Shown here: positions 35,596-46,480 of the stretch, piece after piece
Position numbering within the stretch: the first letter of the stretch is position 1
Layout of the letters: every line of letters begins with the position of its first letter
Origin: Desulfobacteraceae bacterium
GTDB taxonomy: Bacteria > Desulfobacterota > DSM-4660 > Desulfatiglandales > Desulfatiglandaceae
NCBI GenBank assembly: GCA_041685955.1
Contig: JAWLET010000002.1
Coordinates: 1-46,713 of the forward strand
Length of the DNA: 46,713 nucleotides
Direction: 5' to 3'
Program-made: the position numbers and the translations under genes
Notes under the pieces: model-generated
What the model saw: the letters and a program-made list of their open reading frames with translations, nothing else
Told to the model about the DNA's origin: nothing
The model's database searches: none

Positions 35596-35832
35596 CTATT
35601 CCACCTGGACCCGGGTTGCCTTTTTTTTGTGAGCGGCGGCGCTTTTTTTCTCTATGTCCTCGATCCTGTCATCCACCAGGGATCGGATCCCCTTGAGGAA
35701 TTCCACCCGTGATTTTCGCAACTGCTCAAAAAACGTAGAGTCTCTTTCCGGAATCTTTTCAAGCCTGGCAAAAAGTCTGCCTATGGGGCAGAGGGCCATT
35801 TGCTCTTTGGTTTCATTCTTTGTTTGGGTCAT
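35596..35832 (-). CDS. Small hypothetical protein (78 aa) apparently translationally coupled to the ArsA-like ATPase gene
   Basis: The ATG at 35832 is preceded by GGAGG at 5-nt spacing. The start lies 20 nt inside the 3' end of the upstream gene. The protein is helical and charged with a basic tail (MTQTKNETKEQMALCPIGRLF...AAAHKKKATRVQVE). Confidence 0.6.
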   Translation of the reverse strand: MTQTKNETKEQMALCPIGRLFARLEKIPERDSTFFEQLRKSRVEFLKGIRSLVDDRIEDIEKKSAAAHKKKATRVQVE

Positions 35833-37018
35833 GATTCCCTCCTTCAAATTGAATAAAGAGTTGATTTCCTTCCAGCCTGGCCCTGACCGAATCGAGGCCG
35901 GCCACGGGCCGGGGAAGCAGGATGTGCCTTTTGAAATTGGCTACCCGGACAACGAGTTCATCACCGATCTTGTTTAACTCCACATCTTCCTTCCGGGCAA
36001 AGGGGAGCATCAGCCTGAGTTCGTAATTTTCATCAGATTTGGATAGTTGATAGGCCTCACCCTCATAAAACCGCTTAAGAGGGTCTTTCCGTCCATAGAT
36101 CTGCTTGGCCAGGACCTGGAGGGATTCGATCCCCAGCACCTCGCCCTGGAACAGATCTGCCGGAAAGATCGGCACCGGGCTGAAATACTCGCGAGCCTTA
36201 TCCATATACTGACGCTGTGAATTTCGCCAGTTTTTGAAATAGGCATCATTTACGTGTTCCGGCAGGACGCGGTTCATGATGACGGCATCAATGCTCATTT
36301 TATAGAGGGAGAAATACATAAAGGCCCGTTGGGTCTCCTTTAAAACGATTTTTTCAGGATTGGTGATGAGCCGTACGGTGGTGATTTTCGGATCGATCAG
36401 GATTTCATCCACCCCTTTCAACCGCTCGAACAGATGCTCGATGGCGTCGAAATAGTCTTCCCCGGGAAGGGGCACGTCATACAATTTCCTGGCCACCGGC
36501 CGGGCATACCTGGCAATGGTCCGTTCCATCTTGAATATCTTCTTTATGTACCACTCCAGGGTGGTGGGAATGCTGATGAACCTGAGCGATTCCCCTGTAG
36601 GGGCACAATCCAGCAGCAGGACATCAAACTTCCGGGTTTGAACATAGCGGTTGATATATAAGAGCAGGCTGACCTCCTCCATGCCCGGGAGGATGGCCAG
36701 TTCCTCAGCCAGGATCTCGTCCAGACCCGTGGTACTGAGCAGGGTGGAAAAATATTTATGGACATCCCCCCAGTTCTTTTGGATCTCTTCCTGGATATCC
36801 AGTTCCTGAATCCACAGATTTTCCTTTACCTCAACCAGCTTTCCCTTTCGTTTGCCGATCAGGTCCCTGTCCATGTCAAAGATATCCGCCAGGCTGTGGG
36901 CCACATCCAGGGACATGATGGCGGTCCGGTTTCCGGCTTCTGCCGCCCTGACTCCGGTGGCGGCAGCCACACTGGTTTTTCCCACCCCTCCTTTGCCTGC
37001 GAAGAATATAATTCTCAT
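35813..37018 (-). CDS. ArsA/Get3-family ATPase with a C-terminal HSP20-like (ArsA_HSP20) domain
   Basis: 401 aa. Deviant Walker A GKGGVGKTS, then SLDVAHSL and DCAPTGESLRF. The C-terminal beta-rich segment is YELRLMLPFARKEDVELNKIGDELVVRV. Confidence 0.9.
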   Translation of the reverse strand: MRIIFFAGKGGVGKTSVAAATGVRAAEAGNRTAIMSLDVAHSLADIFDMDRDLIGKRKGKLVEVKENLWIQELDIQEEIQKNWGDVHKYFSTLLSTTGLDEILAEELAILPGMEEVSLLLYINRYVQTRKFDVLLLDCAPTGESLRFISIPTTLEWYIKKIFKMERTIARYARPVARKLYDVPLPGEDYFDAIEHLFERLKGVDEILIDPKITTVRLITNPEKIVLKETQRAFMYFSLYKMSIDAVIMNRVLPEHVNDAYFKNWRNSQRQYMDKAREYFSPVPIFPADLFQGEVLGIESLQVLAKQIYGRKDPLKRFYEGEAYQLSKSDENYELRLMLPFARKEDVELNKIGDELVVRVANFKRHILLPRPVAGLDSVRARLEGNQLFIQFEGGNHDPNKE

Positions 37019-39118: not shown

Positions 39119-40405
39119 TCATGGCGACTCCTCCATTCTGGTGAACGCCCGCATCCCGGGGATGGAGCGATAGACCCGGATAAAGCTGTCGTAAAAGTCA
39201 AAGTCGTCATCTTCGGCCTCCACTTCATATTGAATGTCCACCTGGCGAAGTACACACAACTGTTCCTTTACATTGGAGGCTTGAAACAGGGGGATGCCCG
39301 AAGGGGCCCATAGCCCGGAACTTCCCCAGAAGTTGTAGCCGCCCTGGTGCTGTACACCCACCGAATTGCAGGCAATCATCCAAATCTGGTTGGTAGCGGC
39401 GCGGGCCGCAGCCATAAGATTCCATTGGTATCCGTAATACCGGTCCGTGCGTACATTCGCCAGGGGATAGCTCCGCACCGCAGAACCCCGCCAGCTGGCA
39501 AGCTGGATCACCCCGTCGACCCTGTTTTTCATGCCATAGATTTCGTACAGCTGCGAGAAGCACATGTCATAGCAGGTGGTGAATCCGAAACGGCCCCACG
39601 GGGTGGTGACCACCAGCACATCATCCTGTCCCGAGCGTTCATAGACCTTCTCAATGCCCGGGAGAAATGTCTTGTCGTATATGTGGGCGGCATCATTTTT
39701 GGAAAGATCGTTACAATCGAAGTCTTTGTCCACCACATAGGTGGAATTGAGCAGCTTGTTCTCAGGGCCGGCCTTTGGGGAGGGATTGGCCGGATCCCTG
39801 CGCAGGGCGTTAAAGATAATGTATTGCAATTTATCATCCAATTTGGCCTTCAGTTGTCTGAGCCAGTCCTTGTGGTTGTTGAGGGCTCCCTTGTTCATAT
39901 AGGCCCAGCAGTCTGCGTACCCTTTTGGGTTGTATGCGGCAAGCATATCCCGATGGGGATCCTTTTTTTCCCCTTCTTCCTTCAGATTCGTTTGTGCTTT
40001 GGGGTCCGGTCCCTTGCGCGTGTGCCACTGGGGATCGGGCCAGAAATACCCGGTCAGGGAAAACTCTGGAAACAGAACCATGTTGGCGCCTTTTTCCCTT
40101 GCCAGTTCCACCAGTTTCAATATCCTGGCCTTGTTCTGTTCAATGCCGACCCCGGCCTCGATATCCGCCTGGGTGTTGGAAACCATGTTGTGAATATTGG
40201 CCAGGGCCAGCGTCAGGGCGTCCTTCTCATGGGAGAAGGTCCTTTCAATGACCCGGATATCACCCGCCCCGGCCGAAGCAAACGATCCCACCACGAATAG
40301 AGCGACCAGCAGGATCGTCCCCAGGGTGCGGCCCGAATGTTTCTGGGCGCCGGATACGGTTATTGCAGTCCCTCTCCCTTGAGCAGGCCGGTTACTTTGC
40401 TTCAT
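39119..40405 (-). CDS. Exported carbon-nitrogen hydrolase (nitrilase superfamily) family protein
   Basis: 428 aa. The N-terminal hydrophobic signal/anchor is GTILLVALFVVGSFASAGA. Candidate catalytic triad: E114 (LFPEFSLTGY), K245 (IYDKTFLPG) and C278 (TTCYDMCF). GGAG lies upstream of the ATG. Confidence 0.85.
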   Translation of the reverse strand: MKQSNRPAQGRGTAITVSGAQKHSGRTLGTILLVALFVVGSFASAGAGDIRVIERTFSHEKDALTLALANIHNMVSNTQADIEAGVGIEQNKARILKLVELAREKGANMVLFPEFSLTGYFWPDPQWHTRKGPDPKAQTNLKEEGEKKDPHRDMLAAYNPKGYADCWAYMNKGALNNHKDWLRQLKAKLDDKLQYIIFNALRRDPANPSPKAGPENKLLNSTYVVDKDFDCNDLSKNDAAHIYDKTFLPGIEKVYERSGQDDVLVVTTPWGRFGFTTCYDMCFSQLYEIYGMKNRVDGVIQLASWRGSAVRSYPLANVRTDRYYGYQWNLMAAARAATNQIWMIACNSVGVQHQGGYNFWGSSGLWAPSGIPLFQASNVKEQLCVLRQVDIQYEVEAEDDDFDFYDSFIRVYRSIPGMRAFTRMEESP

Positions 40406-41931: not shown

Positions 41932-42127
41932 ACCAGGGCCCAGGAGTATGTGCCCCACGGCTGAATATGTTCCCGGGTAAGGGTGAATCCCGCCAGATTT
42001 ATTCTTTGGTAGGGCCGATCACGGTATGGGCTGTTGAGATGAGCGGTCGAAGATCTCCGCTGCAAGCGAAAATTAACCCCCCGGCATCCAACGTCGAAGG
42101 AAAGACCCTGTCAGAGAATCTCGCATG

Positions 42128-45100
42128 TCAACCTTCCTCATGTTCATCAATTTTCAACTTCCCCAGGTATACGGAGCCCTCAAGGCCGTCCATGCTGATC
42201 CAGTCCCCGGAATGAAGTGTGGTCTGGTCAAAGGCGCAGCTCCTCTCCTTTTCCGAACAGACCAGATTCGGGCACCCCACCACACAGGTCTTCTCCAGCC
42301 GGTGGGCCACAATAGCGGCATGTGAGGTGGACCCGCCTCGTGCGGTTAACAGCCCGTCTGCTTCGTAGATCTCCGTGATGTCGTCCGGGACCGTATCGCT
42401 CCTGACCATGATGAGCGCGGTTTCGGGTTCTTTGGTTCGCCACTGTTTGATTTCGTCCAGGCTGAAGACCACCCGTCCGGTCATGGCCCCGCCACTGACC
42501 CCGATGCCGTGGCCGATGAGTTGAGCTGCCCCTTCGGGAGGAGTCCCAAAGGAGTAGACCTTTCTGCGCTCGCGGATGGCCATCTCCCGGGTCTGAAGGA
42601 AATACAGTTGGCTTGGGCTGGATCCCTCAAAGGTGAACTCTATCTCCTGGGGGCTCCAGTTTTCATCATAGATAAGCCCCTTGGCCCGTTCTCTTAGGGT
42701 ATCATAGATTTCCGGAAACAGGGTCTCCAAGGTCGTAGACGTCTCGCGGTTTTCAATCTCGGCCTGTGTTTCGGAAATGGGAAGCGTCTTGACCAGACCC
42801 GAGACCACATCTTCACCCTGATTCCCCTGTGTGAAATCTCCCCACAGCATGAGCGTGTCTCCTGACCATCTGGGATTGTGGGTAAAAAAGACTCCGGCCC
42901 CTGAACTGGCTGAAAAATTACCAAATACCATGGCCTGGACCGTCACCGCCGTCCCCCAGTCATCGGAGATCCCCATGATCCGGCGGTAGGTCCGGGCCTT
43001 GGGGACATTCCATGAATCAAAGACCTTGCCGATGGCCACGTAGAGCTGTTCCAGGGGGTCCTCGACGATCTCGATGCCGTGGTCCCGGATCAGGCGCTTG
43101 TAGGTCATGGCCACTTCCCGCATATTTTCCCCTGAAAAATTGCGTTTGTACAATAATCCCAGCCGCTGTTTGAATTCATCAATGATGGCATCGAAATCAT
43201 CCCGGATGAGTCCGAAGGCCATGCCGTAGGACTGGAGAAACCTGCGGTAGGTATCCCAGCCGAACCAGTGGTTTCCGGTCTGCTGAATTAACCCGTGAAC
43301 GACGGCCTCGTTGATGCCCACATCCAGAAAGGTGTTCATCATGCCGGGCTGGGATACGGAAGAGCCGCTCCTCACCGAGAAGAGCAGGGGATTTTGGGGG
43401 TTGCCAAACGCTTTTCCCGAAACCCTGTTGATGTGTCCTACCTCAGCCGCTATTTGATCCTGAAAGTTCTTCTTGGCCGGGGGATAGTTGTCAATCACCT
43501 CACGGCACCTGAATACCTCGGTAGTGACGATGAACCCGGGAGGGACGGGAAACCCCAGGGCCTGCAGTTTTACCAGATTGAATCCCTTGCTTCCCAGATG
43601 GATGATGTCCAAAAGCCCTTTTCGGACCCGGTCCATTCGGGTGATGGCCTTTTGGGGGTCGTAACTGAGCAGCAGCTTGACGCGCTCGTCGGGAAGTTTA
43701 TGAGACTGATCAAAAAGGGTATGCAAAATGCGGCCCAGGAACAGGTCCAGTTGCTGCAGGCCCAGGGAGGAGGCAATACGATCCCGCAAAAAAACCTCTG
43801 TTACGCGGTTTGCTAAGCTATTGGAATCTTTTTGGTCTTCCGGGAAGCGGTACTTGGGCAGGAGATTTTCCTCAGGCAGGTGTTTGATAATCCTGAGTAG
43901 GTTGTCCTGGTGAGTGTTGTTGTAATAGTCGCTTACGATATTGCCCACCGCCTTGGAGAGGCCTCTGAAAATATCCAAGTACTGGGTATGGGAAAATCCC
44001 CTGATCTCCAAGGAATTGGCCAAAAGATCCAACTGTCGTCCCAACTCAATGGAGGAAATACCGTCCAGATCCAGGGCCCTTTCAAAGAGACGGAGGTGAT
44101 CCAGGATCTGGGAAAAGGTGGCCTTGGTAATGACCCTCAAATCGATCCCCTGGACCATCTCTTCAAACAGGGTGTTCAGGAGCGATTCCAGCCGGAAGGT
44201 CAGGCCCAGGGCCTCAAATTTCAACTCGTGGTAACTTCCGTACATGGAAGGGATATCCACGGTGAAATGTCGCTTTTGGTAGATGTCTTCTCTGATGTCA
44301 TAGGTCTCCTGGGACAGGATAACTCCCTTCAGGTCTTCAAGATAGCCCAGGATGCCCTGAAGCCGGTTTCTGGTGCCTTGCCGGGCCAGTGCCTCTTTGA
44401 GCCGGTGGAAATCGGGAAGATCGCTTGAGCGCAACTGGGAGAGGTAATCGTCCATCTGAGTAATGCCCGTCTGATATTTCTGGTACAAAAGCTTATACAG
44501 ATTGATCATGAGGGTTACCCGCTCGGAGTCTACGCCCGATGCACCGGGGACCTGGTTGATCAGGGCCTTTACAGATTCCTCTTCCATCCACACCAAATCC
44601 GGTATGTCAGAGATGTTCCCTTCCGTGACCATATGGTTCATGATTTTATGGACCCCGTCGATAAACGGTCCTCGGGTCTCCACTTCTTTCAAGACCGGTG
44701 CGGGCAGATAGGGGGCCAGCCCGGATTTATCCCCTGTTTTCCAGAAAGTAAGGGTGGCTTCCATGAGGGAAACGATTTGGTTGCTGCTCTCCACATGACT
44801 CTGCTTGCGGATAAAGTGGGAGAGGGGATCCTTTCTGAGGCATACCTCGTCGATCTGGGTGGAGATTTCTCTTAATTCCCCTTCGGCCCCGATGTCGCTG
44901 TAAAACACAGGGAGAATCCGGGCCAGTTGTTTGATCAGGTTGTAAACCGGTGCGATATCGTTGTTTAACAGGCGGGTAATGTCCCGGGGGAACAGGTCCG
45001 TGTCCCGGATTAACACCCCGCTCAGGGAGAGATTGATGATCAAGGAAGAGATCAGCTTTTTGGACCACTTGGGTTTGAGGCCGATCAGTTCAAGCCAGGT

Positions 45101-46351
45101 CCGGATATTCTGGAGATGGGCCGCATTGGCCCGGATCTGCCAGTCCTCTCCCACCCCTTTTATCTCAGGGGCCTGAAATCCCAGGGACACCATGCCGTCA
45201 ATGAAAAAATCGACCAGTTCGCTTTTATCGGTTTTGTACAGCGCTTTTCCCATATTCAGGACCGCGTGCAGGGCGGTCTCCGGAAACTTTTCCATGTTGT
45301 TTCTGAGGGTGCCGAAGATCTTTTCCAGAAACCGCTGAACCTCCTGAACCGGTTCATGTTCAATCACTCCGGTAAGACTTCGGTTGATGTCCCTCAGGTT
45401 CTGTTCATGAATGGAGGAAAGACCGTCGATGTTCATGATGTTCAACAGGGCCACCAGCTTAAGCTGTGGCCCTATGCTTCGGTCCGTGACCGAGGCCAAG
45501 AGCGCTTGCGGAATTTTACCGTAATCATGGACAATCCGTCCGAATCCGGGAAGGACCGCCAATTGTTCGAGTCGTTTTCGGGCGTCCTTTTCAGTTTTTT
45601 TCAAGATGGTGTCCAGACGCTCCTGATACGCCTTCAACTGCCGGTGGGAGACGGGTTTGAGGACTTCATTGATCCGGGCCTCACCGGTTTCCTCTTTGGA
45701 AAGATCTTGGAACCATCTAAGGGGGTCCTCCTGCTTCAACCAGTAGGCATAGGTGTACAGCAGCGTGTCTTCAAGCAGGGCATTGAGGGCCGTAACATCC
45801 AGGTGGGTGGCGGAGGCTTTGAGGATTTCCAAACAGTCCCCGGCAATGGCGCTTATCTGATAGAAGCTGGTCACAAACAGGTGAAATATTTCTTCGGGGT
45901 ATTGGCGGATTCTGTCAAACCCGTAATCCAGCAAAGGGGAGAAGCTTGGAAGTGAATCTTCCGCGTTTCGAATGATGTGCTGTAGAAAAAACAGGAGGTT
46001 GTCGGCGGCATCCCTTTTGACCGCTTCGGTCCGGGCCGATTCCAGGGCCTGGAAGAAGATATCCACATACAACCGGGCCGCTTCCGGGCCTTTGGAATGG
46101 GTTTTTACCACATGAAAGTAGTTGAGGGCATAGGACCGGGCCTCCTTGACGATATATTCCCAGTTTTTGTAAGGGTGGCAGATCTCTTCCAGGAGACCCT
46201 GCAGGCCTTGTTTGACCCCCGGATACCGCTCCATGACCTCAAGGAGGATTTTGTACCGTTCATCTACGGTGACATCGACCCGAGTACATTCCAGATTAAC
46301 CTGAAGGGCCTTGGATTTCATGCCTCCATCGCTCCTGATCCATCCATTCAT
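42128..46351 (-). CDS. Giant dikinase-like protein: ~900-aa unrecognised helical N-terminal region + PPDK/PEP-synthase-type ATP-grasp nucleotide-binding domain + phosphohistidine swivel domain; no PEP/pyruvate-binding domain
   Basis: 1407 aa. From aa ~918 (nt <=43600) it shows HLGSKGFNLVKLQALGFPVPPGFIVTTEVF, FSVRSGSSVSQPGMMNTFLDVGIN, WGTAVTVQAMVFGN, QGEDVVSGL and EIEFTFE...LYFLQTR. The swivel motif is LLTARGGSTSHAAIVAHRLEKTCVVGC, with the His codon at 42320-42322. The ORF ends ~60 aa later. An alternative start is the ATG at 46321. Confidence 0.9.
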   Translation of the reverse strand: MNGWIRSDGGMKSKALQVNLECTRVDVTVDERYKILLEVMERYPGVKQGLQGLLEEICHPYKNWEYIVKEARSYALNYFHVVKTHSKGPEAARLYVDIFFQALESARTEAVKRDAADNLLFFLQHIIRNAEDSLPSFSPLLDYGFDRIRQYPEEIFHLFVTSFYQISAIAGDCLEILKASATHLDVTALNALLEDTLLYTYAYWLKQEDPLRWFQDLSKEETGEARINEVLKPVSHRQLKAYQERLDTILKKTEKDARKRLEQLAVLPGFGRIVHDYGKIPQALLASVTDRSIGPQLKLVALLNIMNIDGLSSIHEQNLRDINRSLTGVIEHEPVQEVQRFLEKIFGTLRNNMEKFPETALHAVLNMGKALYKTDKSELVDFFIDGMVSLGFQAPEIKGVGEDWQIRANAAHLQNIRTWLELIGLKPKWSKKLISSLIINLSLSGVLIRDTDLFPRDITRLLNNDIAPVYNLIKQLARILPVFYSDIGAEGELREISTQIDEVCLRKDPLSHFIRKQSHVESSNQIVSLMEATLTFWKTGDKSGLAPYLPAPVLKEVETRGPFIDGVHKIMNHMVTEGNISDIPDLVWMEEESVKALINQVPGASGVDSERVTLMINLYKLLYQKYQTGITQMDDYLSQLRSSDLPDFHRLKEALARQGTRNRLQGILGYLEDLKGVILSQETYDIREDIYQKRHFTVDIPSMYGSYHELKFEALGLTFRLESLLNTLFEEMVQGIDLRVITKATFSQILDHLRLFERALDLDGISSIELGRQLDLLANSLEIRGFSHTQYLDIFRGLSKAVGNIVSDYYNNTHQDNLLRIIKHLPEENLLPKYRFPEDQKDSNSLANRVTEVFLRDRIASSLGLQQLDLFLGRILHTLFDQSHKLPDERVKLLLSYDPQKAITRMDRVRKGLLDIIHLGSKGFNLVKLQALGFPVPPGFIVTTEVFRCREVIDNYPPAKKNFQDQIAAEVGHINRVSGKAFGNPQNPLLFSVRSGSSVSQPGMMNTFLDVGINEAVVHGLIQQTGNHWFGWDTYRRFLQSYGMAFGLIRDDFDAIIDEFKQRLGLLYKRNFSGENMREVAMTYKRLIRDHGIEIVEDPLEQLYVAIGKVFDSWNVPKARTYRRIMGISDDWGTAVTVQAMVFGNFSASSGAGVFFTHNPRWSGDTLMLWGDFTQGNQGEDVVSGLVKTLPISETQAEIENRETSTTLETLFPEIYDTLRERAKGLIYDENWSPQEIEFTFEGSSPSQLYFLQTREMAIRERRKVYSFGTPPEGAAQLIGHGIGVSGGAMTGRVVFSLDEIKQWRTKEPETALIMVRSDTVPDDITEIYEADGLLTARGGSTSHAAIVAHRLEKTCVVGCPNLVCSEKERSCAFDQTTLHSGDWISMDGLEGSVYLGKLKIDEHEEG

Positions 46352-46459
46352 CAGCCTTTGAGGCTGACAGACTATGGCATAATGTTACCTCATTCAGGGG
46401 AAAGAGGTCCAGTCCAAACCTGATTTTTAGGTGCAAACGCCCAAAGACAATGCGAGGGG

Positions 46460-46480
46460 CGCCCCCCCACCCGGGGGGCG
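46460..46480 (-). terminator. GC-rich hairpin downstream of the partial gene at the window end (terminator candidate)
   Basis: CGCCCCCC (46460-46467) / GGGGGGCG (46473-46480) form an 8-bp stem with a 5-nt loop, ~130 nt downstream of the minus-strand stop at 46610. The trailing sequence is only weakly T-rich. Confidence 0.35.

Follow-up and report, generated by a model that had tools for sequence, protein, structure and literature searches.

The DNA analysed here (hereafter the window) is a 46,713-nucleotide stretch of contig JAWLET010000002.1 from a Desulfobacteraceae bacterium. On its minus strand it encodes a giant dikinase-like protein, a member of an unnamed family of ~1350-1540 residues for whose N-terminal domain no Pfam or NCBIfam model exists. 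The protein joins an N-terminal domain of ~900 residues to a nucleotide-binding and phosphohistidine module of the pyruvate phosphate dikinase (PPDK) type, lacks the phosphoenolpyruvate (PEP)/pyruvate-binding TIM barrel, and belongs to a family whose genes are nearly always paired with a divergent glyceraldehyde-3-phosphate dehydrogenase (GAPDH) gene. Sequence comparison and gene linkage suggest, on balance, that the protein is probably a phosphotransferase of the dikinase type that has a new acceptor domain and acts together with this GAPDH paralogue. Reuse of the PPDK-type module is already known; a dikinase-type phosphohistidine enzyme that combines a new acceptor domain with a fixed GAPDH partner would be new. 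A preliminary description of the window had proposed a new phosphotransferase with a novel acceptor-binding or regulatory N-terminal domain. The architecture and the novelty of that domain stand, whereas the clue that it drew from the gene neighbourhood was misleading. The features of the gene are as follows, in the numbering of the 1407-residue reading.

42128..46351 (-), whole open reading frame (ORF) of the dikinase-like protein, 1407 residues counted from its first ATG; the coordinates include the stop codon

46319..46321 (-), probable true start codon, Met11 of the long ORF, giving a product of 1397 residues

45182..46321 (-), variable N-terminal helical-repeat region, residues 11-390; all helices in the AlphaFold2 models, with a predicted local distance difference test (pLDDT) score mostly >85 and the lowest conservation

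43607..45181 (-), conserved core of the N-terminal domain, residues 391-915, modelled by AlphaFold2 as all-alpha with one beta hairpin; candidate acceptor or catalytic domain, carrying all 17 invariant residues of the N-terminal domain

44780..45019 (-), most conserved block of the N-terminal domain, residues 445-524 (DTDLF, IGAEG.LR., F.RKQ.HVES.N.), column identity 0.64-0.69

44228..44293 (-), conserved beta hairpin IY.KRH....IPSMYG.Y.E.KF, residues 687-708, with invariant K693, H695, S702 and G705; the sole beta strands in the AlphaFold2 models

42566..43606 (-), PPDK-type ATP-grasp nucleotide-binding domain, residues 916-1262 (Pfam PPDK_N; TIGR01828 positions 18-335; PDB alignment to PPDK)

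42143..42511 (-), phosphohistidine swivel domain, residues 1281-1403, with the protein ending 4 residues further on (Pfam PEP-utilizers, 1314-1392; central domain of PDB 2fm4, E 3.3e-22)

42320..42322 (-), codon of the catalytic His1344 in GGSTSH (His1334 in 1397-residue numbering), aligned with His455 of Clostridium symbiosum PPDK

The C-terminal PPDK-type module

The C-terminal ~490 residues had been described as a PPDK-type ATP-grasp domain followed by a swivel domain, and every motif quoted for that assignment is present. LGSKG lies at residues 919-923, SVRSG at 992-996, PGMM at 1002-1005, WGTAV at 1132-1136, QGEDVV at 1178-1183, QEIEFTFE at 1235-1242, LQTR at 1252-1255 and GGSTSH, which ends in His1344, at 1339-1344. 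A phmmer search of PDB sequences aligns residues 919-1403 with residues 19-514 of C. symbiosum PPDK (E 1.8e-86). When the whole protein is scanned against Pfam and the output is read down to E<=1, PPDK_N (PF01326, residues 960-1259, 9.7e-29, 101 bits) and PEP-utilizers (PF00391, residues 1314-1392, 7e-18, 64 bits) are found, and nothing else. The residues of the ATP/pyrophosphate (PPi) site are present (K922, R994, G1003-M1005, R1036/R1037, E1236/E1238, Q1253 and R1255) and nearly invariant across the family, as is GG.TSH with His1344. By these alignments the module is a complete PPDK-type ATP-grasp and swivel unit, with its nucleotide- and pyrophosphate-site residues and its catalytic histidine. 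Because the protein shares the ATP/PPi-site residues and the histidine of GG.TSH with PPDK, it probably also carries out the first partial reaction of that enzyme.

The affinity of the module to PPDK, PEP synthase or VadK, a truncated PPDK of Mycobacterium tuberculosis, was judged by NCBIfam and PDB scores, which serve as a proxy for phylogeny. The highest NCBIfam score is that of TIGR01828 (PPDK), 389.5 bits and under the equivalog cutoff of 843, followed by NF004531, a short "PPDK" model, at 312 bits and under its cutoff of 456. Models of PEP synthase score 70-83 bits (TIGR01418, 70 against a cutoff of 740), and the model of rifampin phosphotransferase (RPH), NF041857, scores 28 against a cutoff of 999. 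The protein thus lies below the whole-protein cutoffs for PPDK, VadK-type, PEP synthase and RPH models. It is a full, colinear member of the unnamed family, in which the N-terminal domain is followed by PPDK_N and the swivel.

The protein ends 63 residues past His1344. Pfam finds no match to the PEP/pyruvate TIM barrel (PF02896) in the protein, and a tblastn search of the 46.7-kb window with a canonical 923-residue PPDK matches only PPDK residues 23-546, with no match to the PEP/pyruvate domain anywhere. These results uphold the earlier observation that the protein stops after the swivel and has no barrel. They also rule out a split PPDK, in which a separate ORF would supply the missing domain; the genes downstream encode a major facilitator superfamily (MFS) transporter and a carbon-nitrogen (CN) hydrolase. 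The likeness to PPDK (EC 2.7.9.1, TIGR01828, e.g., the C. symbiosum enzyme, PDB 1KBL) therefore lies in the homologous and colinear ATP-grasp and swivel domains, the ATP/PPi-site residues and the GG.TSH histidine. The protein differs from PPDK in lacking PF02896, in its ~900-residue all-alpha N-terminal domain, in having the swivel at its extreme C-terminus, in its GAPDH partner and in its TIGR01828 score under the cutoff.

The reading frame itself is sound. The ORF is uninterrupted over its 1407 codons, as the preliminary description gave it, with the conserved start shifting to Met11. Homologues and gene callers begin at MKSKALQ (Met11), giving 1397 rather than 1407 residues, and the orthologue at locus L013 aligns from Met11 without gaps. 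The identical protein (P0001, 1397 residues, 100% identity) occurs on 6 independent contigs from different samples, one of which is JAWOCU010000142.1 of assembly GCA_046483635.1. Compared with L013, the closest orthologue, the protein shows 87% amino acid identity and no indels or frameshifts. The ratio of nonsynonymous to synonymous substitution rates (dN/dS) is 0.12 overall, 0.167 in the first 380 residues, 0.112 in the core of the N-terminal domain and 0.094 in the PPDK module, values that indicate purifying selection on the gene. The absence of an adjacent GAPDH-like gene at this locus would be in keeping with an assembly chimera, in which an unrelated helical ORF is fused to a truncated PPDK, or with a pseudogene that remained when the partner was lost. 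Such an artefact or decaying gene is nevertheless extremely improbable, given that the genome still has the partner at another site. The low dN/dS, the lack of indels, the identical protein on 6 contigs and a colinear architecture conserved in more than 160 relatives exclude both an assembly fusion, a concern already raised in the preliminary description, and a pseudogene.

The N-terminal domain and its family

Far from being a singular giant, the protein belongs to a large, conserved family, which databases misleadingly label "pyruvate, phosphate dikinase." In a word-indexed search, 120 full-length homologues (1285-1427 residues, 56-87% identity, 91-100% coverage) were retrieved, all with PF01326 and PF00391. 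Where the databases name these proteins at all, they call them "pyruvate, phosphate dikinase" or "PEP/pyruvate-binding domain-containing protein." In these close homologues the protein likewise ends shortly (~60 residues) past the swivel histidine. More distant relatives were collected by phmmer with residues 1-915 against 1.84 billion cluster representatives (50% identity), which yielded 596 clusters at E<=1e-3 and 222 at E<=1e-30. In all 46 full-length representatives (1335-1540 residues, 28-44% identity in the N-terminal domain), the N-terminal domain is followed by the PPDK-like module, and the match to the module is full-length in 45 of them. A recognisable GG.[TS]SH motif is present in 41 of the 46, and in these the protein end falls 45-83 residues past the start of the motif. 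A search for other architectures with the N-terminal domain of P0264, the most distant branch, gave only 3 matches, all of the same architecture.

A scan of one genome per GTDB species places the family in at least 380 genomes. The hosts are mainly Desulfobacterales, Desulfatiglans and Desulfobulbales (Desulfobacterota), together with Nitrospirota, where they comprise Thermodesulfovibrionales and the magnetotactic "Magnetomicrobium" and "Magnetominusculus." In genome papers, genes of this kind seem to be entered as ordinary PPDK. The Desulfotignum phosphitoxidans genome paper, for example, lists two "PPDK" genes (PMC4046663), either of which may belong to the family. In one subclade (P0150, P0151 at L097:1166-5788, and P0173), an N-terminal hemerythrin domain (PF01814) stands ahead of the helical N-terminal domain, a fusion that hints at O2, redox or iron sensing.

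Conservation within the N-terminal domain is strongly uneven. It is lowest in residues 11-390, with a mean column identity of 0.24-0.46. A first peak covers residues 401-500, DTDLFQRDI..LLN.DI.PVY.LVKQL.R.FPVYFNEIGAEG.LRD.ST.IDE...R.D.L.HFLRKQ.HVESNN., and a second covers residues 651-700, IY.KRHIA.GIPSMYG.Y.E.KF. Seventeen residues of the domain, mostly charged, are invariant: D440, P471, G481, R484, D491, R505, K506, H509, K615, Y616, K683, H685, S692, G695, G754, R846 and D859, numbered from Met11 (adding 10 gives the 1407-residue numbering). Invariance was judged in 62- and 32-sequence alignments that reach down to 21-25% identity, and many more columns are nearly invariant. Eight of these residues fall in the block at 445-524, where they are, in 1407-residue numbering, D450, P481, G491, R494, D501, R515, K516 and H519. 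The window protein has each of the family-invariant residues D450, R494, D501, R515, K516, H519, K625, Y626, K693, H695, S702, R856 and D869. Seventeen invariant and mostly charged positions fit an acceptor or catalytic site. The modelled core, with its cluster of Arg, Lys, His and Asp, would be a candidate new acceptor or catalytic domain for phosphohistidine chemistry.

AlphaFold2, run with the 62-sequence alignment, models the 905-residue N-terminal region with a mean pLDDT of 89.2 and a predicted template modelling score (pTM) of 0.83. The 525-residue core alone reaches a pLDDT of 91.0 and a pTM of 0.90 and consists of helices and the single hairpin. Searches with this region returned no informative relative. 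Pfam gives no match on the N-terminal domain of 31 diverse family members, NCBIfam and Pfam give none on residues 1 to ~905 of the window protein, and the phmmer search of PDB sequences finds nothing for residues 1-915. The 62-sequence profile picks up only designed helical repeats among PDB sequences, that is, compositional matches. Foldseek with the whole N-terminal region against 350,542 PDB chains retrieves only karyopherin/HEAT-type solenoids, at template modelling (TM) scores of 0.06-0.18 and a root-mean-square deviation of ~30 Å, and with the core its best PDB match has E 0.13 and TM <=0.2. The earlier impression of ~900 helix-rich residues with no assignable motif is thus borne out by the sequence searches and by Foldseek against the PDB, and no characterised family was matched by sequence or by fold. 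Judged from the models and these searches, the N-terminal domain is folded, strongly constrained and without a recognisable relative in the libraries searched (Pfam, NCBIfam and PDB).

Other dikinase-type enzymes show how such a domain could be accommodated. RPH (PDB 5FBS/5HV1; PMC4844700) follows the same three-part dikinase logic, with an ATP-grasp domain, a C-terminal swivel histidine and an acceptor domain that is not a TIM barrel. By analogy, it is the best precedent for an acceptor-domain swap. The RPH module, however, belongs to the PEP-synthase type and is only a distant relative, and the RPH acceptor domain is much smaller and lies between the ATP-grasp and swivel domains. Foldseek against the PDB finds no fold match between that domain and the N-terminal domain described here. 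Glucan water dikinase, phenylphosphate synthase and the prodiginine ligases PigC/RedH/HapC also combine an ATP-grasp and phosphohistidine module with a family-specific acceptor domain, and glucan water dikinase is similar to the window protein in overall size (~1400 residues). This group differs from the window protein in domain order and in its acceptor domains (CBM45 and others), and the similarity to RedH/PigC is weak and local (E 1e-5 to 1e-4 over ~30 residues). In glucan water dikinase, unlike the window protein, the histidine domain precedes a C-terminal nucleotide-binding domain.

The GAPDH partner and the proposed reaction

The partner that is found across the family escaped the preliminary description. 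A census was taken of the non-redundant loci with >=600 nt of downstream sequence (n=64). In 61 of them, a divergent GAPDH-like gene encoding 410-438 residues (Gp_dh_N and Gp_dh_C) lies directly downstream on the same strand, in many cases at a distance of -3 to +30 nt. The arrangement is missing from the other three, which comprise the window itself and a pair of Desulfobulbaceae loci with a GAPDH of canonical length (334-335 residues) directly upstream. A gene of this canonical length was observed directly upstream at L087, L090 and L092 (Desulfobulbaceae/Thermodesulfobacteriales); L090 also has the long GAPDH-like gene downstream, and L087 and L092 have the upstream copy only. The link to GAPDH is kept in the distant members P0162 (32% identity) and P0208 (~25-33%) and is absent in P0264 and P0151.

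Scored against TIGR01534 (type I GAPDH), the partner reaches 319-322 bits, below the cutoff of 367. It keeps the equivalents of the catalytic Cys149 and His176 and of Thr179 and Arg231 at the substrate-phosphate site. The position of Asp32, which specifies NAD, is not conserved, and the preceding Arg is kept. We take these positions to have the functional meaning established for GAPDH. Because the Asp32 position is unconserved and the Arg before it retained, the partner may use NADP(H). Seven insertions are also conserved in the partner (e.g., L013:4518-5810), among them the Lys-rich loop FKIKDK and one of ~40 residues near the C-terminus.

The feature that typifies the unnamed family, a long GAPDH-like gene directly downstream, is absent from the window, where the following junction takes its place.

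41937..42134 (.), junction without the partner GAPDH-like gene, from blastn of the window against L013; 198 nt against 1419 nt (L013:4507-5925)

In this comparison the flanks of the junction share 84-85% nucleotide identity, the 1419 nt with the 430-residue GAPDH-like gene are missing here, and the MFS gene comes next in both sequences. A tblastn search for a GAPDH-like remnant in the window, including the 198-nt junction, found none. An orthologue, P0271 (L093:2621-3928; 435 residues, 88% identical to that of L013), lies on contig JAWOCU010000149.1, in the same assembly as the dikinase-like gene. Because P0271 is retained on another contig of that assembly, the pair has been separated rather than lost. 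The alignment indicates that the partner was cleanly excised from this locus by rearrangement. At its present site, the P0271 gene adjoins a PCMT methyltransferase gene.

Other genes recur upstream of the pair. A carbon monoxide dehydrogenase/acetyl-CoA synthase (CODH/ACS) cluster lies directly upstream and co-directional in 17 of the 46 loci whose upstream sequence spans >=6 kb, and in several loci with less. Its genes are ordered RACo, AcsD, CooS, AcsB, AcsC, AcsE and DUF3786, and because the gaps are 16-450 nt, co-transcription with CODH/ACS is not established. The loci with this arrangement, examined over 10 kb, include many from Desulfobacterales (L022, L023, L029, L030, L039, L045, L048, L049, L054 and others). 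At L011, a canonical full-length PPDK of 923 residues with PEP-utilizers_C (L011:5000-7771) lies directly upstream of the family gene. At L001 (L001:6882-9996), a GlgA-like glycogen synthase gene and a hybrid sensor histidine kinase gene are packed upstream with 4-nt spacings, and histidine-kinase and response-regulator genes lie directly upstream of the family gene in L001 and L003.

These linkages bear on whether the protein could be a non-orthologous PPDK or PEP synthase, in which the N-terminal domain would bind pyruvate or PEP in place of the TIM barrel, so that the enzyme would still interconvert the two for gluconeogenesis fed by the Wood-Ljungdahl pathway. Among known modules, that of genuine PPDK is the closest, a site after CODH/ACS and before GAPDH would fit a path from acetyl-CoA through pyruvate and PEP to triose phosphate, and such genes already pass for PPDK in databases and in genome papers (possibly PMC4046663). 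At L011, however, the family gene and a canonical full-length PPDK coexist. The protein contains no motif or fold of a PEP/pyruvate domain, and the gene that is linked to it specifically and almost everywhere encodes GAPDH rather than pyruvate:ferredoxin oxidoreductase or enolase. We therefore consider a pyruvate- or PEP-binding role very unlikely.

A phosphotransferase with a new acceptor domain could work as follows. ATP, with inorganic phosphate (Pi), would pyrophosphorylate and then phosphorylate His1344 as in PPDK, the phosphoryl group coming from the beta-phosphate of ATP, and AMP and PPi would be released. The C-terminal swivel would then bring the phosphoryl group to the putative invariant site of the N-terminal core, where an anionic acceptor would be phosphorylated. 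The reaction may be placed at the 3-phosphoglycerate/1,3-bisphosphoglycerate/glyceraldehyde-3-phosphate node, in gluconeogenesis from acetyl-CoA, because the partner keeps the Cys/His pair and the substrate-phosphate site of phosphorylating GAPDH and because the pair often follows CODH/ACS. As a specific guess, the carboxylate of 3-phosphoglycerate would be phosphorylated to 1,3-bisphosphoglycerate for the partner GAPDH, or the reaction would run in reverse, giving ATP from AMP and PPi. Transfer from phosphohistidine to a carboxylate has precedents in succinyl-CoA synthetase and ATP-citrate lyase. By general thermodynamic reasoning, if a dikinase bypassed phosphoglycerate kinase, triose-phosphate synthesis from acetyl-CoA would gain driving force. 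The reverse reaction would remake ATP from AMP and PPi, which are products of sulfate activation in these organisms.

Several points weigh against this proposal. The choice of 3-phosphoglycerate as the specific acceptor comes from gene linkage alone, and we hold it to be unlikely. Slightly more doubtful again is the full scheme, in which a 3-phosphoglycerate carboxyl dikinase (ATP to AMP and PPi via phosphorylated His1344) and a dedicated GAPDH would constitute an unrecognised step. Such a step would be a bypass of phosphoglycerate kinase on a catalytic domain of new fold, would make triose-phosphate synthesis irreversible at low energy charge and in reverse yield ATP, and would be confined to sulfate reducers of the Wood-Ljungdahl type and their Nitrospirota counterparts. 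Phosphoglycerate kinase normally makes a dikinase at the 3-phosphoglycerate step unnecessary. A domain of 900 residues is very large for binding a C3 acid, and its poorly conserved, HEAT-like first 380 residues look, in the models, more like a protein-interaction scaffold. The hemerythrin fusions and the neighbouring histidine kinases speak for regulation more than for catalysis. Since this window has no GAPDH gene next to the dikinase-like gene, tight co-expression is not obligatory, and a literature search on the family found no paper. Finally, VadK, the closest truncated PPDK with a studied function, is a regulator (PMC13400623).

VadK (Rv1127c) is, as presented there, a PPDK derivative without the TIM barrel that keeps the ATP-grasp domain and the swivel histidine. 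Its autophosphorylation on His422 depends on ATP and Mg, and it interacts with methylcitrate-cycle enzymes (PMC13400623). It shows that a PPDK-derived module can work with other central-metabolic enzymes. By this model, the window protein would be a regulatory kinase or sensor. His1344 would be autophosphorylated according to the energy state (ATP/AMP/PPi), and the N-terminal domain would serve as a scaffold for the GAPDH paralogue or other enzymes of central metabolism, with activity controlled by binding or by protein phosphorylation and no metabolite made. Several observations are consistent with such a role. The module scores 312 bits on NF004531, a short model probably built for VadK-type proteins; the N-terminal 380 residues are solenoid-like and weakly conserved; hemerythrin sensor domains are fused to P0150, P0151 and P0173; and in L001 and L003 the family gene is directly preceded by histidine-kinase and response-regulator genes. 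That its translation is coupled to that of the GAPDH gene would fit a stoichiometric complex, and the seven conserved insertions of the partner could be docking surfaces.

The same evidence has another side. The 17 invariant, mostly charged residues are concentrated in two short blocks and resemble an active site rather than a docking surface, and the NF004531 score is under its cutoff of 456. VadK, with ~490 residues and no further domain, is actinobacterial and has no such N-terminal domain, whereas the present family has a conserved domain of 900 residues, occurs in other taxa and has a fixed GAPDH partner. Protein phosphorylation by VadK is not shown in the available part of PMC13400623. 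These considerations leave a VadK-like regulator as a possibility to be taken seriously, though not a likely one. To our knowledge, wherever the acceptor domain of a three-domain dikinase relative is known (PPDK, PEP synthase, RPH, glucan water dikinase and PigC/RedH), the enzyme acts on a nonprotein substrate.

If the protein is indeed a phosphotransferase acting with the GAPDH paralogue, hundreds of sulfate reducers and related anaerobes would carry a conserved 1400-residue enzyme and a dedicated GAPDH in central carbon metabolism. Its annotation as "pyruvate phosphate dikinase" would then make genome-based metabolic reconstructions wrong at that point. Either outcome, a new dikinase reaction at the 3-phosphoglycerate/1,3-bisphosphoglycerate node or a VadK-like regulator of the GAPDH paralogue, would extend reuse of the PPDK module beyond pyruvate and PEP.

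Neighbouring genes and flanking features

In the window, the MFS transporter gene follows 278 nt past the dikinase-like gene and is itself followed by the gene for the CN-hydrolase and then by housekeeping genes for DsbD, an ArsA-like ATPase, HisRS and AspRS. The preliminary description had pointed to the MFS transporter and an exported CN-hydrolase. Both genes are present as described, and the N-terminus of the hydrolase is hydrophobic; as a clue to function, the arrangement is lineage-specific and uninformative. The two genes were ruled out as functional partners, since they are neighbours of the dikinase-like gene only in this lineage and at L013, where the GAPDH gene intervenes.

The CN-hydrolase (39119-40405 (-)) carries a hydrophobic stretch (TLGTILLVALFVVGSFASAGAG) at its N-terminus, as would suit export or a membrane anchor. 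Beyond it come DsbD and an ArsA/GET3-like ATPase that contains an HSP20-like domain (listed at 35813-37018 (-)), and after these the source contig has a small AF_1253-family ORF. In a promoter and terminator scan of the flanks of the dikinase-like gene, the number of sites did not exceed that in shuffled sequence. At 46452-46470 (-), ~100 nt upstream of the gene start, lies a GC-rich hairpin of 8 pairs with a weak T tract, which may be the terminator of the preceding gene outside the window.

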